Positions 139 through 36,360 of a stretch of DNA of 64,000 nt are shown in pieces. Origin of the DNA: Ignavibacteriales bacterium (GTDB lineage: Bacteria; Bacteroidota; Ignavibacteria; UBA10030); the NCBI GenBank assembly GCA_016193365.1, contig JACPSI010000017.1, forward strand, positions 8,679 to 72,678. The letters are read 5' to 3'. The translations under genes and the position numbers were made by a program. Each line of letters starts with the position of its first letter. Position 1 is the stretch's first letter. The notes beneath the pieces were generated by a model. That model was not told where the DNA came from. It made no database searches and saw only the letters and a program-made list of their open reading frames with translations.

Positions 139-234
139 AAGCTTCCGAAGGTTCACCTGGAAGACTCCCGGAGTCTTACCAGGTCAACCTTTGTGAGACT
201 CCGGGAGTCTCATTTATGACCTTCGGAAGGTCAT
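139..234. repeat. Cluster of REP-like palindromes (nested pairs)
   Basis: AAGCTTCCGAAGGTT 139-153; ACCTGG-AAGACTCCCGGAGTCTT-ACCAGGT 155-184; TGAGACTCCGGGAGTCTCA 194-212; ATGACCTTCGGAAGGTCAT 216-234. Confidence 0.75.
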
Positions 235-3200
235 CGCAACACGGCCATTTTCCCAAGAACCTCGACGGACTTTTGTTGATCTTGGGTTTTTGCTATGATT
301 TTGTAAAAATACACACCGTTAGCCAGCTCGTTGCCGTCAGCATCTCTGCCGTCCCATGGGATTTGTGCAAATCTTTCGGCAAGGGCGTATGAGTTGACCG
401 TCTGTATCAGCCTTCCCGCGATGGTGTAGATCTTCAACTCTACGTCAATCGGATCGGGCGAGTTCCTCTGGAACGTGAACACGGTGTTTGAAGAAAACGG
501 ATTTGGAAAATTGACGACATGGTAGATGGCAAAATCTGTTTCCGAGCGCACTTCAAAAAAGATTTCTGATTCGGACGAATTGTTGTATGTGTCCCACGCC
601 TTTACGGTGACGGAATGCCTCCCCTCGGAGAGACTTGTGAGCGGATATCTCACCTGGCCGCTTTGATACGTATCCAGGTTACTACGGTAGTAGTCCATAA
701 GGTCGATTGGCGCCGACTGACTGCTCAAGACGGCCTGCAGGCGATGCCCGATGCCGGCGATCGAGGTGTTGATACCGTTGTCATCGAAAAGATCCACTAA
801 AAGCGTTGCGTTTGGCTTGATTAAGTCGCCGGACCTGAATTCCTGGTCTTCAAAATAGATGGAAATTTGCGGCCCAACGGAATCCGGGACCGCGGCAGAA
901 TCCGTGCTTGCGATCGTAACATTTTCTGTAAACCCGATTGCGTCCGTGGAGTCGCTCCACGCATACAATGAGATTCGGGACCTTGCTCCAAACGAGACGT
1001 CCTTTGGGAGCGGAAAAACGTTCTGGAATGAACCGTTTATTACAGAGACTTCGCCTCTGTACAGCAGGCTTCCATTCACTTCATAGGAAAATCCAAACCA
1101 TTCGTTCACAACATTCTGTCGTTTTGCATCCAGTACTTCGATAATGCCCCTGCCGTTGAAATTCGTCCACACGGCCCCGTTTGGTCGTTTGACGTTCCCC
1201 CTGACATTCACTTTCGCAAGCGATTGCATTGGAACAAGTTGCGCGGTCGTGTTCCCGTTGACAGAGTCTATCGAAGCATTCGCGCGGGGCGTATTGAGCC
1301 TGATGGTTGGGTCGGCAAACAAATGATATTTCATATCGTTAATGTCCGTGAGCAGCTGTTTTGTTTGCCACATCGCGTCACCGACGCGAGCAGAGCGGCC
1401 TAACGAATCACGCTGAAAAAGATAACCGTAGAATGTGTTGTTCAGAATCGAGTTCTGTCCGGAATACACGGCTCTCGAAGATGTCAAAAGACCGATCGCT
1501 CCTCTTTGATCCATGGCCATGAGCAATTCTCCCGAGCTTTGATCATGAGGGTCGTCGTATTGAGCGTAATTACACGTTGCCGCGACCACAAAGGCAAGCT
1601 TGTTTCCGTTCGCAAGCCGAGGGATATCGCCTTCTCGAGTGAACACAGCCTCATGGGCCCAGAGATTCGGATTACCGTGCCCCGTGTAGTTTACGATCAA
1701 TGTCCCCGTGTTGAAAGCCCCAACAATATCCGTATTGACATCCGGCTTTCGCCGACCTGTCGCGCTGCTTACCGTTGGATATTCGATCAGGTAGATTTTT
1801 TTCTGCTCAAAACTCGACGGTGTATAGAATTTTGCAAGTTCTTCAGCCTGTGCAGTGTGAAGATTTCCATCATTACCTGATGAAGTCAGCCCATCATCGG
1901 CGACAAATGTTATTCTGTTGCGCCAGGTGTCAAACGGAACAGCCGTCTCGTATGCAATAATCTTATCGACCATCGTTGCGGCTTCGCTCAGAGAACGGGC
2001 CGGAAGCCTTCCCGAAGCTAGAGAAACACGATTGCTCCCGGCGTCAAGAAACAGGTAATGGTCGTCGCTCGCATATGTATTTATCTGAAAGTTCGATTCC
2101 AAGGATTCATACGGCGGGATCCAGTTTCTCGCAGACGTTGATATGTTTTTGTAATCATAATGTCCGCCGCCGAAAAACAAAACGTATCGTGGTCGAAGCG
2201 TCCAGTTTGTTTTTGCGTATCTAAGGAAATCCCGGACTCCTATCGGGTCTGGAGCGCCGCCTGAGAATTCGTTGAAAACGTGCTCAATATTGATGACGGC
2301 TGTTTTCAAAGAATCCTGTCGCTCGCGATGTGCTTTGAGGCGTTCGGCCACGTTCAAAAATTCAGGAGGTGTAATGATGAGGAACTCGGCTCCAGGCACG
2401 ATGTTGTGAACATTCGAGTTTTGAACCCGTCGCGGATTTAACGGCGTTTTGAATCCCGAAACCCCTACAACAGCAATCTCGCTTATGCCACCCGACGTGT
2501 GAGACAACTGAAATGTTACGATTGTAGAAATCGCAGTATTAAAATCAAGTTGTACGATTCGTTTGATTGCATTGTGGGTCGTTACATCAAAAACCATCGT
2601 CTTGCGATCCGTCAAGTTACTGACGGTATATTTGACTATTGCGGTTGTGTCCGGCGATGAGAACAGCAAAAAGTCGCCTGCCGCTTCGAATAGCCGGCGA
2701 TAGTGAATTTCCACCCAGTCCAGCCAGCCCCTTGATTCCTGGTTTCCGGTTTCAAACACGACCTTCAACGTGCTTTTGTTGTTTGTCAATTCACCTGTTC
2801 GGACAAAGCTTGTCACAGGTGATCGATAAGCGTATTCTCCAATTTGATCGATTGCCCCGACATCGACAGTACCCACGATAATGGGATTCCCTAGCAGCGA
2901 GTCGCTTTCTAACAGCCGGAACGCATCAACCGTTTTTGACCGGCTAAGAACCACTGTTTTATAAAGTGTGGGCGATGTGAAGACATGCCCCGCGAGGGTG
3001 TGAACATAAACCGACGTGTTATTGAGGTTATCAAACGACTGGCCAACCCATTGACGCCCGGAACGCACAAGATTAAACCGTTCCTGCTCGATGAATAGCT
3101 TTTCCTGGAAATCCGTTGCCTCCACCCCCCCCGTAAGTGATGCCACAGAGTCCATTTGAATGCCCGCTGTATCTCCGAATGTCAGAAAATAATAACTCGA

Positions 3201-3614
3201 CTCAGTAAAATGGTTGATGTAGTGGCTAAAAGTCTTCGATGCCGGATTATAATTCCATCCGCGGGTCGCCCTGCCAAAAAAGATGATATAGTCGTCAGAA
3301 TCGAAGGACCCGTCAAGGTCATTGTCCACAACGTACCGGGCGATTTCTTCCAGCCCGTTTGGTCTGGGCACATTCAAGTTTTCCGGCAATTCCCTCCCTC
3401 CGTTTCCGAAAATCCGGACAGTGTTGATGTTCCCAATCGAACTGACCGCGATACCGGCGTCGATAAAGAATTTCTGGTCCAGTTTGTACAGGCCAGTTTC
3501 CCGTACCTCCAACTGATACCAGCTGCCTTGCGCCAGAGGAGAGTCGGAAACTTGAGCCCGCGTTGTTTGTTGCGCGATGTTTGCCAGAGCAAACACCAGA
3601 AGAATTTTTCGCAT
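231..3614 (-). CDS. porU: Type IX secretion system sortase PorU (peptidase C25)
   Basis: Signal peptide MRKILLVFALANIA from ATG 3614 (the ORF-track start at 3929 runs through an RNA leader). GLYKL and IFGNGG N-terminal motifs; catalytic YTGHG and AATC; C-terminal FPNPFS...WDGRD...LANGVYFYK domain. Confidence 0.9.
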   Translation of the reverse strand: MRKILLVFALANIAQQTTRAQVSDSPLAQGSWYQLEVRETGLYKLDQKFFIDAGIAVSSIGNINTVRIFGNGGRELPENLNVPRPNGLEEIARYVVDNDLDGSFDSDDYIIFFGRATRGWNYNPASKTFSHYINHFTESSYYFLTFGDTAGIQMDSVASLTGGVEATDFQEKLFIEQERFNLVRSGRQWVGQSFDNLNNTSVYVHTLAGHVFTSPTLYKTVVLSRSKTVDAFRLLESDSLLGNPIIVGTVDVGAIDQIGEYAYRSPVTSFVRTGELTNNKSTLKVVFETGNQESRGWLDWVEIHYRRLFEAAGDFLLFSSPDTTAIVKYTVSNLTDRKTMVFDVTTHNAIKRIVQLDFNTAISTIVTFQLSHTSGGISEIAVVGVSGFKTPLNPRRVQNSNVHNIVPGAEFLIITPPEFLNVAERLKAHRERQDSLKTAVINIEHVFNEFSGGAPDPIGVRDFLRYAKTNWTLRPRYVLFFGGGHYDYKNISTSARNWIPPYESLESNFQINTYASDDHYLFLDAGSNRVSLASGRLPARSLSEAATMVDKIIAYETAVPFDTWRNRITFVADDGLTSSGNDGNLHTAQAEELAKFYTPSSFEQKKIYLIEYPTVSSATGRRKPDVNTDIVGAFNTGTLIVNYTGHGNPNLWAHEAVFTREGDIPRLANGNKLAFVVAATCNYAQYDDPHDQSSGELLMAMDQRGAIGLLTSSRAVYSGQNSILNNTFYGYLFQRDSLGRSARVGDAMWQTKQLLTDINDMKYHLFADPTIRLNTPRANASIDSVNGNTTAQLVPMQSLAKVNVRGNVKRPNGAVWTNFNGRGIIEVLDAKRQNVVNEWFGFSYEVNGSLLYRGEVSVINGSFQNVFPLPKDVSFGARSRISLYAWSDSTDAIGFTENVTIASTDSAAVPDSVGPQISIYFEDQEFRSGDLIKPNATLLVDLFDDNGINTSIAGIGHRLQAVLSSQSAPIDLMDYYRSNLDTYQSGQVRYPLTSLSEGRHSVTVKAWDTYNNSSESEIFFEVRSETDFAIYHVVNFPNPFSSNTVFTFQRNSPDPIDVELKIYTIAGRLIQTVNSYALAERFAQIPWDGRDADGNELANGVYFYKIIAKTQDQQKSVEVLGKMAVLR

Positions 3615-3623
3615 AATAGAAAT

Positions 3624-3658
3624 AAAAAAGCCGAACAGGAAAGCCTTCCCGTTCGGCT
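3624..3658 (-). terminator. Intrinsic terminator about 10 nt upstream of the porU start
   Basis: Minus strand AGCCGAACGGGAA-GGCT-TTCCTGTTCGGCT followed by TTTTTATTT. Confidence 0.8.
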
Positions 3659-3670
3659 CAAACTTTTTTT

Positions 3671-3771
3671 GAGCATCGCCGAATTCAGTAAAGGCTTTTA
3701 CATCAAAGTTCCCGAGCGCGACATGTACTCGACTCAGGAACGAAACCTTTACCAAACTTCGATAGATACTC
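3671..3771 (-). ncRNA. Candidate structured RNA (101-nt rod hairpin), sRNA or porU leader
   Basis: Nested helices GAGUAUC/GAUGCUC, GUUUGGUAAAGGUUU/AAGCCUUUACUGAAU and GUUCCUGAGU/GCUCGGGAAC. Several G-U wobbles form only on the minus strand. A terminator follows. Confidence 0.6.
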
Positions 3772-3870
3772 CGAGTTTCTCGACCAGTGAACTTGGACAC
3801 AAGATAATGAATCGCTTCTGAAGAGTCAAGAACGGGCTCTTCAATGTGATTCGCGGCAAATACTGATGTT

Positions 3871-3916
3871 AAACCTGACAGGTCGCAAAAGAATTCCAAA
3901 GACACCTGCCAGGTTT
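3871..3916. repeat. REP-like inverted pair (ACCTG.CAGGT family)
   Basis: AAACCTGACAGGTC 3871-3884 and CACCTGCCAGGTTT 3903-3916; same motif recurs at 36317-36360. Confidence 0.7.
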
Positions 3917-4003
3917 CACTGTGGTTCATTCCGGTTTCGAATTGCGATTGGAGAAAATTTTGGCTAAATTGAGTGGGTGACTATGATTTTTGCCTCGTTT
4001 TGA

Positions 4004-5497
4004 ATGTCAAGACCCATCAACATTCTGTTCGTTTCAAGTGAAGTAGACCCATTTGCGAAGACCGGCGGTCTCGCCGATGTCTCCAGCGCCCTGCCAAAGG
4101 CCATCAAAGAGCTTGGACATGAAATTCGCATCATGATGCCCCGTTATCGCTTCATTGGCGAACGCAAATTCAAGCTTCATGATATTATCCGGCTCAAAGA
4201 AATTCCTATTCCCCTCGGGAACCAGTCGGAACTTGGCAACGTCAAATCCTCGTTTATCAGCAACATGAAGGAAAAGGTCCAGGTCTATTTTTTGGACAAC
4301 GAGAAGTTTTTCGGGCGAGACGGCGTCTACCAGAGTCCACAGAGCAAGAAAGACTATAAAGACAACGATGAACGGTTTATTTTCTTTTGCCGCGGTGTGC
4401 TGGAAACGCTCAAACGCCTCGGCTGGCAACCCGACATTATCCATTGTAACGACTGGCAAACAGGATTGATTCCTGCCTATCTCAAGACGATTTACACGAA
4501 CGACTCATTCTATAAAAACAGCAAGACTGTTTTCACGATTCACAACATGGCCTACCAGGGCGCTTTTCCGGCAGAATCATTCGGAAAATCAGGGCTTCCA
4601 AAAGCGGCTTTTAAATCAGACGGCGTCGAGGCTTACGGAAAATTCAACTTCCTGAAGGCCGGCCTTTATTTTGCCGACACGATTACAACGGTCAGCGAAA
4701 AATACGCGCATGAAATCTGCAGTTCGAACGAGTTTGGTGCCGGTTTGAATGGACTCCTGGAAAGCCGGAAAAAGGACCTCAAAGGCATCCTCAATGGAAT
4801 AGACTATCAAATGTGGAATCCGCTCTTTGATGACCACATCTACCGAAAATATGATGCGAAGTCGATTGAAGCGAAGGTGGACAACAAAAAGGCTCTTTGC
4901 GCCAAGTTCAACCTCACTTTTAAAGAGTCCACACCTGTCATAGGAGCTATTTGCAGACTCGTGGAGCAAAAAGGGTTTGAGCTTGTCCTGGAGATTCTCG
5001 ACGATATGCTCAAGCTGGACGTTCAATATGTCATGGTTGCTTCTGGAGATAAAGATCTCGAGAAGAAATTCGAATCGGCCCAGAAGAAGCACTCACACAA
5101 GCTCGGCATTTTCTTTGGGTTCGATGAAGAGCTCGCCCATCTCGTTGAAGCCGGGAGCGACATGTTCTTTATGCCCTCCAAATACGAACCGTGCGGACTG
5201 AACCAGATGTACAGCATGAGGTACGGAACAATCCCCGTTGTCCGCGCCACGGGAGGCCTGGACGACACGGTTGAAGACTATTCGGGAAACGGCAAGGGAA
5301 CCGGGTTCAAATTTGAAAAATACGACTCCAAGGAATTGCTCAAAGCCATCCACCGTGCTCTCAAAGTCTTTCAGCAGCCCGAAGAATGGAAAAAGATAAT
5401 GCGCAACGGCATGCAACGGGACTTTTCTTGGGAGCATTCTGCCAAGAAATACATCAACCTCTACAAAGACCTCCTGAAATATCATCGTGAAGTTTGA
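4004..5497 (+). CDS. glgA: Glycogen synthase (GT5)
   Basis: KTGGLADV, HCNDWQ, FTIHN, PSKYEPCGLNQM and RATGGL motifs. Confidence 0.95.
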   Translation: MSRPINILFVSSEVDPFAKTGGLADVSSALPKAIKELGHEIRIMMPRYRFIGERKFKLHDIIRLKEIPIPLGNQSELGNVKSSFISNMKEKVQVYFLDNEKFFGRDGVYQSPQSKKDYKDNDERFIFFCRGVLETLKRLGWQPDIIHCNDWQTGLIPAYLKTIYTNDSFYKNSKTVFTIHNMAYQGAFPAESFGKSGLPKAAFKSDGVEAYGKFNFLKAGLYFADTITTVSEKYAHEICSSNEFGAGLNGLLESRKKDLKGILNGIDYQMWNPLFDDHIYRKYDAKSIEAKVDNKKALCAKFNLTFKESTPVIGAICRLVEQKGFELVLEILDDMLKLDVQYVMVASGDKDLEKKFESAQKKHSHKLGIFFGFDEELAHLVEAGSDMFFMPSKYEPCGLNQMYSMRYGTIPVVRATGGLDDTVEDYSGNGKGTGFKFEKYDSKELLKAIHRALKVFQQPEEWKKIMRNGMQRDFSWEHSAKKYINLYKDLLKYHREV

Positions 5498-20257: not shown

Positions 20258-20274
20258 CCGAACTTGGTACTCGC

Positions 20275-20347
20275 GGCGATGGAGTTCGCCAAAACCGAGG
20301 CCTATCAATTCGTCAAGTGGATTGAGACGTCTTCTAATGACTCCTAC
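20275..20347 (+). ncRNA. Fluoride riboswitch (crcB motif)
   Basis: GGCGATGGAGTTCGCC-AAAACCG...CTAATGACTCCTAC consensus directly upstream of crcB. Confidence 0.93.
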
Positions 20348-20375
20348 ACTGAAACATCGGTGGTAGGAGTTTTTT
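20340..20375 (+). terminator. Riboswitch expression-platform terminator
   Basis: ACTCCTAC-ACTGAAACATCGGTG-GTAGGAGT plus T-tract, overlapping the aptamer 3' end. Confidence 0.88.
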
Positions 20376-36284: not shown

Positions 36285-36316
36285 CGTAGAGAAGACGTGA
36301 GGCGTTTCACCACAAA

Positions 36317-36360
36317 AACCTGACAGGTCCCCAGAGAGTACAAAAGAGACCTGTCAGGTT
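36317..36360. repeat. REP-like inverted pair (ACCTG.CAGGT family)
   Basis: AACCTGACAGGTC 36317-36329 and its exact reverse complement GACCTGTCAGGTT 36348-36360. Confidence 0.78.

Follow-up and report, generated by a model that had tools for sequence, protein, structure and literature searches.

A putative transcription attenuator with a four-segment design upstream of the type IX secretion sortase gene porU in Ignavibacteria

The window, a stretch of 64,000 nucleotides from an Ignavibacteriales bacterium of the class Ignavibacteria (contig JACPSI010000017.1 of assembly GCA_016193365.1), carries the gene porU, which encodes the sortase of the secretion system of type IX (T9SS). Directly upstream of porU, a leader RNA is encoded on the minus strand and would be read from about 3794 to 3622; all coordinates given here are positions in this 64-kb window. 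The leader can be divided into four segments with alternative pairing partners (Table 1). Comparative evidence suggests, with moderate confidence, that it is a transcription attenuator of the porU-porV operon and represents a new RNA family, in which a long rod would act as anti-antiterminator.

Table 1. Features of the porU locus (all on the minus strand)
Feature	Position	Strand	Content and basis
Leader promoter (putative)	3801..3829	-	-35 TTGACT 3829-3824, 17-nt spacer, -10 TATCTT 3806-3801; 9/12 matches in a consensus scan
5' tail, ~23 nt	3772..3794	-	variable sequence
Segment 1	3743..3771	-	5' strands of P1 (3771-3765, GAGUAUC), P2a (3762-3758, UCGAA) and P2b (3756-3743, UUUGGUAAAGGUUU); fold, alignments A5/A6/A7 and pair counts
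Upper part of the rod, variable	3698..3742	-	bulge C3742; P3 and apical hairpin 3741-3708; J3/2 3707-3698 (10-nt 3' internal loop)
Segment 2	3671..3697	-	3' strands of P2b (3697-3684), P2a (3683-3679, UUCGG) and P1 (3677-3671, GAUGCUC)
A-rich linker	3660..3670	-	length and sequence vary among relatives
Segment 3	3642..3659	-	terminator 5' strand 3659-3646 and loop 3645-3642
Segment 4	3622..3641	-	3' strand of the terminator, 3641-3628; T run 3629-3624, followed by ATT
porU (type IX secretion sortase)	231..3614	-	ATG 3614; NF033707 987.6 bits (cut-off 420); Peptidase_C25

Structure of the leader and its alternative pairings

The significance of the fold was assessed by comparing its energy with that of 200 shuffled sequences. 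On the minus strand, the region 3790-3615 folds with -69.7 kcal/mol against a shuffle mean of -44.4 (z -5.99), and none of the 200 shuffles was as good, while the plus strand of the same region reaches -46.3 kcal/mol (z -3.57). These values agree with an earlier interpretation made from the DNA letters without database searches (the sequence-only reading), which had assigned the structure to the porU strand. It had also described a 101-nt rod with about seven G-U pairs and an asymmetric internal loop, followed by a strong terminator about 10 nt before the start codon, and both elements were recovered at the same place. The rod (3771-3671) is 101 nt long, comprises 39 pairs, 7 of which are G-U, and has an energy of -42.3 kcal/mol when folded alone; in its asymmetric loop, C3742 lies opposite 10 nt (3707-3698). 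The terminator is formed by a 14-bp G+C-rich stem (3659-3628) and the T run 3629-3624, and the site 3659-3624 is the sole terminator-like one within 3500-4100. Only 9 nt separate the end of the T run from the porU ATG (3614-3612).

Relatives of the leader were collected with a covariance model built from 7 sequences (R1). Two alignments were analyzed, one of 73 sequences from the window's family aligned to R1 (A5) and one of 25 sequences from a wider search (A7). Covariation among homologues, a check that the sequence-only reading had proposed, was found in both. In A5, 88.0% of the cells are standard pairs compared to 79.2% in column shuffles and 34-52% with slid partners, and 264 cells are changed on both sides of a pair compared to 85.7 in shuffles, a number reached by 0 of 500 shuffles. 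All 7 pairs of P1 change on both sides. The corresponding values in A7 are 80.3% paired cells against 70.1% when shuffled and 112 against 48 changes on both sides. The CCG/CGG pairs at the base of the terminator stem are invariant (74/74 and 25/25 aligned rows), and segment 1 carries a core that is conserved throughout the class, UAUCG...UUGNUAAAGGUU.

Because A5 and A7 were fitted to the rod (1:2) and terminator (3:4) structures of the model, an alignment-independent test was added. In this own-versus-cross test, the duplex energy of the two strands of one sequence is compared with the energy obtained when one strand is taken from another genome; neither this test nor the shuffle tests are corrected for phylogeny. 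The own strands paired better than the crossed ones in 58/73 sequences for P1, in 62/73 for P2 and in 66/73 for the terminator. For P3, this was the case in 49 of the 73 (p = 1e-4). Within the family, the upper part of the rod retains a 5' motif, GUUCCUGA, and P3, with an architecture and length that vary between genera. The 3' internal loop spans from ~10 to 25 nt in relatives and shifts in position, and in the family f17 a ~20-nt loop on top of a 16-bp stem is all that is left of the upper part. Since this part of the rod is so variable, the loop of C opposite 10 nt, to which the sequence-only reading had drawn attention, is present in the window as one local form and is not a defining feature of the RNA.

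Several other pairings were examined in the family by the same test and gave no signal. An extension of the rod by pairing of the 5' tail with the linker scored 38/73, and no pairing was supported between tail and J3/2, tail and the start region, J3/2 and linker, J3/2 and the start region, or between the terminator loop and either J3/2 or the tail. Segment 1 showed no pairing signal, or a slight avoidance, with the tail, the apex and the start region; its pairing with the 5' tail was slightly disfavoured (own better in 26/73).

Segment 2 has two potential partners, segment 1 in the rod and segment 3 in an antiterminator. Segment 3 mimics segment 1 (in the window, GCCGAA-CGG-GAAGGCU and UCGAAG-UUUGGU-AAAGGUU, respectively, with the likeness CGAA...GAAGGCU), and it is this resemblance that enables segment 2 to pair with segment 3. 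The antiterminator of the window comprises 16 bp between 3696-3678 and 3657-3642 with an energy of -20.3 kcal/mol, and with segment 1 masked and segment 4 not yet made it becomes the minimum-energy fold. The 2:3 pairing is incompatible with both the rod and the terminator.

The antiterminator is conserved in the window's family. The mean 2:3 duplex energy is -16.84 kcal/mol for own strands compared to -14.43 kcal/mol for crossed strands, with the own duplex being better in 58/73 sequences (p = 3.6e-8). When segment 3 was shuffled, the mean z-score of the 2:3 duplex was -3.52, and 65/73 sequences were below -1.64. The control pairing of segments 1 and 4 yielded a mean z of 0.07 with 2/73 sequences below -1.64, and the controls 1 with 3 (same sense) and 2 with 4 were likewise flat in the family sequences. 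Had the 2:3 complementarity arisen only from the likeness of the two hairpins, 1:4 ought to show it as well; the flat 1:4 control therefore argues against a by-product. Support also comes from A5, which was not fitted to 2:3. Of the cells in its 11 antiterminator column pairs, 87.4% are paired against 29-57% with slid partners, and 18 cells are changed on both sides compared to 8.2 in shuffles, which was reached by 0/500. Some clades extend the 2:3 helix and no other: in genus g17, GUUCGGCUGA faces UUUAGCCGAAC (-16.5 kcal/mol), and in g9 GCUGAA faces UUCAGC. The mean energies of the three strand pairs are comparable, with -22.1 kcal/mol for 1:2, -16.8 for 2:3 and -20.4 for 3:4. Two of the features that characterize an attenuator were thus found at the porU leader, namely an intrinsic terminator located after the promoter and ahead of the first codon, and a conserved alternative pairing that excludes this terminator; a third, read-through that changes with a signal, is predicted.

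A different switch had been proposed from the window sequence, in which the hairpin GCUCAAA/UUUGAGC would overlap the base of the rod and the beginning of the terminator. In the window, this hairpin has 7 bp and -8.8 kcal/mol. It was abandoned as a switch, as only 4/73 relatives can form it with at least 6 bp and no own-versus-cross signal was detected (34/73, p = 0.6).

Nearly all terminator loops or upper stems in A5 and A7 contain the word AAGG(C/U) or AAAGG(U/C)CU, which also occurs in the 5' strand of the rod. This word was read as a part of the antiterminator mimicry; alternatively, it might be a repeated word for protein binding.

Distribution, promoter and genomic setting

A BLAST search in 41 related genomes revealed that the region ~3830-3607 is kept in several genera, a stretch that is longer than the rod and takes in the promoter-like region. 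The distribution was determined with R1 and with a second covariance model built from 37 diverse sequences (R2). The E-values of both models are rough owing to a shortened calibration, and the counts across genomes are not independent because the genomes are related. R1 identified the RNA in 78/86 genomes of the window's family, in 60/64 of those of good quality and in 31/33 genera. One match per genome is the rule; a second, weaker or partial match occurs in 3/78.

At least two of the eight genomes missed by R1 hold diverged copies. In one of them (G077, contig C25, locus L224, genus g45), a G+C-rich variant of the leader with AACGG/CCGUU in place of AAAGG/CCUUU lies ~170 nt before porU; the hairpin next to the ATG is retained, with an interrupted U tract, UUGCCGUUUCU. 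Directly upstream of this variant lies a sequence that resembles a tRNA, as judged by eye. In the other (G045, contig C1, locus L226, genus g39), ~200 extra bases that fold strongly separate the leader terminator from the PorU signal peptide, and the PorU frame does not visibly begin with an ATG.

R1 alone had suggested that the RNA is restricted to one family. This was ruled out by R2 and by inspection of the regions upstream of porU in other families. Five further families of the order were inspected by hand and the same core was recognized in three of them (f2, f6 and f8) as GUUCGUUAAAGGUU ... ACCUUUAACGAAC, followed by an (A/G)CCGAAU...AUUCGG(C/U)UUUUUU terminator. No such RNA was seen upstream of porU in f4 (L229) and f9 (L233). 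R2 traced the RNA to six additional families of the class; it was found in 30/151 genomes sampled from the class, with matches in 7/7 genomes of f1, 1/1 of f6, 3/4 of f7, 2/3 of f8, 5/10 of f12, 8/10 of f17 and 2/7 of f19; a single match in f15 covered a bare terminator and was counted as false. A sample of the whole phylum gave only two matches outside the class, both short (75 and 97 nt) and weak. The contigs that bear the RNA, or the closest PorU relatives, are labelled as Ignavibacteriales or Ignavibacteriaceae. A search with the sequence pattern TAAAGGTT-gap-GCCTTT-gap-TTCGG was discarded as too loose, since it retrieved at least 120 stretches and only 2 of 80 loci were true by the model.

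The putative promoter of the leader looks like the housekeeping sigma-70 type, and transcription would start near 3794. A CTTGAC(A/T)-N17-TA(T/C)(C/A)TT pattern recurs in the corresponding position of nearly all 73 upstream sequences from the family and also in other families, as judged by eye in the printed upstream sequences. It sits 25-35 nt upstream of the start of the covariance model.

The 3' end of the RNA is tied to porU. The distance from the end of the model to the ATG is -1 to +12 nt in 71/72 sequences (one of the 73, L223, has no qualifying ATG and was left out), and an open reading frame (ORF) that begins with a signal-peptide-like sequence starts 2-10 nt past the model end in 30/30 loci. 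A PorU homologue lies directly downstream in 21/25 loci of the wider search; the remaining four are two contig ends, one false match and one locus in which another gene with a T9SS tail comes first. On the other side, the neighbour is a divergent glgA in 28/30 family loci and in 2/21 evaluable loci of other families. As the upstream gene varies between families and porU is constant, the RNA appears to travel with porU and not with its other neighbour. On the same strand, porU is followed beyond the window by porV (NF033710, 265.2 bits at a cut-off of 250) and a gene for a T9SS-dependent M6-like protein (NF052323, 811.8 bits at a cut-off of 600).

The leader poses a trap for annotation. The porU frame remains open for 105 codons upstream of 3614, through the whole leader and up to an ATG at 3929, so that the 1232-codon ORF 231..3929 over-extends porU by 105 codons across leader and terminator. 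Only 4/72 relatives have the same open frame through the leader, and the open frame of the window can thus be attributed to chance. No Pfam match was obtained for the 105-codon extension, and, counted from ATG 3614, the match to the PorU profile begins at residue 27 of the protein.

The PorU proteins themselves differ at the N-terminus. In most relatives (L023, L025, L027 and many others), an extra domain of ~230 residues with the motif D-[IL]-R-[IV]-L-x-E...S-x-V-x-E-[FY]-x-P follows the signal peptide and the open frames comprise ~1350-1380 aa. The PorU of the window's genus (1127 aa) and of a few others is without this domain.

Searches for known RNA families were negative at the leader. 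A scan of the whole window with Rfam 15, which holds the trpB motif from a 2024 RNA-discovery paper, gave no family at the gathering score for this locus; such a scan had been suggested together with the sequence-only reading. The only match in the window at gathering score is a fluoride riboswitch (RF01734) at 20266-20353 on the plus strand with 41.3 bits (gathering 34). The best sub-threshold match at the locus, and the sole Rfam model with an E-value below 0.1, is the trpB motif (RF04312; E 0.009-0.02), whose aligned letters are mostly those of a generic terminator. Membership in this family was rejected both on the score (31.3 bits compared to a gathering score of 59) and on the taxon. The statement that the RNA is neither a signal recognition particle (SRP) RNA nor a 6S RNA nor a recognized riboswitch holds as well, since no such Rfam model matches the locus. 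The SRP RNA of the genome (RF00169) lies elsewhere on the contig (G000:C138:89493-89592, 70.5 bits). For 6S RNA (RF00013), no match was obtained at the locus with E-values up to 10 and the only match in the genome is on another contig; 6S-Flavo (RF01685) has no match in the genome. The RF00013 match, the 261-nt stretch G000:C77:6038-6298 (+), scores 40 bits (gathering 46.4) and may be a divergent 6S RNA.

The rod is a single-copy element. No second copy was found in the 3.16-Mb assembly by BLAST, by the covariance model or by the core motif, which disposes of the dispersed copies of a miniature inverted-repeat transposable element (MITE) that the sequence-only reading had named beforehand as a refuting observation. 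On contig C155, a 28-nt sequence that resembles segment 1 has neither a partner strand nor a terminator nearby and was judged to be a chance match. Taken together, the leader is an RNA family without an Rfam entry and neither chance nor a repeat nor coding sequence.

A separate repeat is located between the start of glgA and the leader promoter. This perfect palindrome of ~45-50 nt (3866-3917, ACCTGRCAGGT ... ACCTGTCAGGTT, -23 to -39 kcal/mol as a hairpin) has at least two further copies in the genome, at ~36316-36360 of the window and at G000:C23:2811-2862. The former is followed by a T run and is terminator-like. The palindrome looks like a member of a small repeat family, either similar to repetitive extragenic palindromic (REP) elements or terminator-like, that is distinct from the porU leader.

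Proposed mechanism and competing explanations

The sequence-only reading had left the choice between a new attenuator and a free small RNA (sRNA). Comparative evidence speaks for the cis-acting attenuator, and a specific switch can now be proposed. An undescribed cis attenuator is favoured because the leader has no Rfam match, is present in a single copy, consists of covarying helices and, in many genera, keeps both its promoter and its position relative to the porU ATG. Moreover, the U tract abuts the start codon and leaves no room for another promoter, so that every porU transcript must pass the terminator.

In the proposed mechanism, a sigma-70-type promoter would start a leader of ~180 nt, in which segments 1 and 2 form the long rod (P1-P2-P3) and segments 3 and 4 a strong intrinsic terminator against the porU start codon. 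By default, the rod would form as soon as segment 2 emerges and would sequester it, thus acting as an anti-antiterminator. The terminator would then form, transcription would stop and an RNA of ~170 nt would be released. If segment 1 were occupied during transcription, segment 2 would instead pair with segment 3 and the polymerase would read into porU-porV. In this state, segment 4 would remain unpaired immediately before the ATG and should thereby aid the start of translation as well. A prediction of this model is that blocking segment 1 causes read-through.

The best guess for the effector is a trans-acting factor, for instance a protein that binds RNA, with specificity for the conserved segment 1 in its single-stranded form. 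This is favoured since segment 1 is conserved beyond the needs of pairing and avoids its own tail and apex, and since the regions that might build a pocket are not conserved. A small-molecule ligand seems less likely because of the lack of conservation in the upper part of the rod. A more far-reaching proposal, to be regarded as a speculation of rather low probability, is that the conserved, purine-rich 5' strand GGAG...UAUCG...UUGNUAAAGGUU is bound while nascent by a factor acting in trans, be it an RNA-binding protein, the 30S subunit or a small RNA, that this binding licenses read-through into porU-porV, and that the abundant terminated RNA could have a second role in trans. If true, an RNA switch shared throughout the class Ignavibacteria would set, after initiation, the capacity of the T9SS to cleave and anchor its cargo.

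A number of points weigh against the attenuator. Transcription start, termination and read-through are all predictions from sequence. The rod and the terminator together are far more stable than the antiterminator state, and the minimum-energy fold of the full transcript keeps the terminator even when segment 1 is masked; read-through would therefore require a factor and kinetic control. The core motif of segment 1 occurs only at this locus in the genome, so that no regulon points to a binding protein. The degenerate U tract of g45 suggests that the hairpin may do something else or something more, such as acting on translation. On the technical side, the own-versus-cross tests disregard relatedness, A5 and A7 presuppose 1:2 and 3:4, and the model E-values are approximate. 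The 2:3 signal is weak in sequences from other families (own better in 16/22, p = 0.059, mean z -1.62; L255 was left out as a false match, and L224 and L226 as members of the family), which is partly explained by the column-based cutting of segments being poor for some rows.

The attenuator has to be weighed against other explanations, among which a free trans-acting sRNA of ~170 nt is conceivable, if unlikely. Such an RNA would have its own promoter and terminator, porU would be expressed by constitutive leak-through and the adjacency of the two would be inherited synteny. The strong consensus promoter, the strong terminator and the presence of one copy per genome, like a housekeeping sRNA, are all in line with this idea, and the default fold predicts efficient termination, so that most of the product should be terminated RNA. 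However, the conserved bases lie within helices and no conserved single-stranded seed was seen in the alignments, the terminator stays beside the porU ATG in 71/72 sequences and across families with different upstream genes, and a 2:3 complementarity without a 1:4 counterpart has no role in a plain sRNA. The RNA may also serve both as leader and as sRNA. A metabolite or ion riboswitch, with the rod as aptamer and terminator and antiterminator as expression platform, is improbable. The succession of hairpin and terminator with an antiterminator in the 3' shoulder recalls orphan candidates such as the trpB motif, as far as they are described in the available part of the source (PMC11109978), and the trpB model has its weak match at this locus. 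Against an aptamer, the possible parts of a pocket (P3, J3/2 and the apex) vary in sequence, length and architecture down to the ~20-nt loop of f17, and the conserved bases are mostly Watson-Crick paired. The ligand-dependent switching helices of known riboswitches are short, much shorter than the ~27 bp that P1 and P2 make up in the window fold (family mean -22 kcal/mol).

Hardly to be expected is a constitutive structural leader, be it an mRNA stabilizer, a processing site or an insulator that damps the promoter, with 2:3 as a by-product of similar hairpins. Segments 1 and 3 as well as 2 and 4 do resemble each other, as after a duplication, and the g45 variant retains the hairpin without a clean U tract. 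Yet a duplication predicts 1:4 pairing alongside 2:3, in contrast to the observed z of 0.07 compared to -3.52, and the clade-specific extensions lengthen the 2:3 helix alone. The open frame of 105 codons upstream of 3614 and a conserved GGAG at the start of P1 could evoke coding sequence, either an N-terminal extension of PorU from ATG 3929 or a leader peptide with ribosome-dependent attenuation. This explanation has almost nothing to recommend it, as the frame is open in only 4/72 relatives, indels among the relatives are not multiples of three, the extension lacks a Pfam match and the PorU profile begins at residue 27 after a signal-peptide-like start at 3614. Furthermore, neither a start codon at a conserved distance past GGAG nor a conserved frame was visible by eye in the alignments. 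Equally negligible is a dispersed repeat of the MITE or REP type or a chance hairpin. A few copies of the separate palindrome at 3866-3917, 100 nt upstream, do occur elsewhere in the genome, but the rod and the terminator are single copy, their fold is far better than that of shuffled sequences and their helices covary.

Comparison with known systems

The leader was rated as a new family of RNA whose regulatory kind is known and whose target is unexpected. For RNA biology, it provides an attenuator family, as yet an orphan, in which the division into four segments is unusually clear, with ~95 aligned examples (73 from the family and 22 others). It also touches on the regulation of the T9SS attachment complex in a little-studied and mostly uncultured lineage. 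Classic attenuators that are composed of terminator, antiterminator and anti-antiterminator are the pyr leaders of Bacillus, which are controlled by PyrR, and the trp leader. Like these, the porU leader has mutually exclusive 1:2, 2:3 and 3:4 pairings of comparable energies between the promoter and the first gene. In contrast to them, it matches no Rfam leader and is without a conserved leader peptide, the part of the anti-antiterminator would be played by a very long rod whose stem is conserved in sequence, and it would target secretion genes instead of biosynthetic genes.

Two further types of RNA invite comparison. The trpB motif is an orphan cis-regulatory candidate in the 5' untranslated regions of amino-acid-related genes in Firmicutes and Fusobacteria, according to the available part of the report (Narunsky et al., 2024; PMC11109978), whereas the porU leader occurs in Ignavibacteriales-type genomes and precedes porU. 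With 6S RNA and SRP RNA, the leader shares the rod shape, a length of ~100-180 nt and the occurrence of one copy per genome. The models of these two RNAs, however, match elsewhere in the genome or nowhere, and never at the porU leader.

A published description of an RNA leader of porU was not found in the articles searched. The claim of the sequence-only reading that no cis-acting RNA regulator of porU has been described is consistent with this literature. Control of porU at the level of initiation has been reported for two members of the Bacteroidota. In Porphyromonas gingivalis, porU and other T9SS genes are controlled at initiation by the PorY-PorX-SigP pathway, as stated in the accessible part of the source (PMC4800418). 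The porU gene of Flavobacterium psychrophilum has a promoter of the extracytoplasmic function (ECF) type that is induced by low nutrients and high osmolarity, again according to the part of the article at hand (PMC9723704). As far as these excerpts go, the Ignavibacteria would resemble both species in placing porU under dedicated regulation. They would differ in having, instead of initiation control by an ECF sigma factor, a housekeeping-like promoter and, as the control element, an RNA between this promoter and the ATG. All published control of porU and the T9SS found in these sources acts at initiation, and a class-wide RNA switch in front of porU-porV would add a different regulatory layer.

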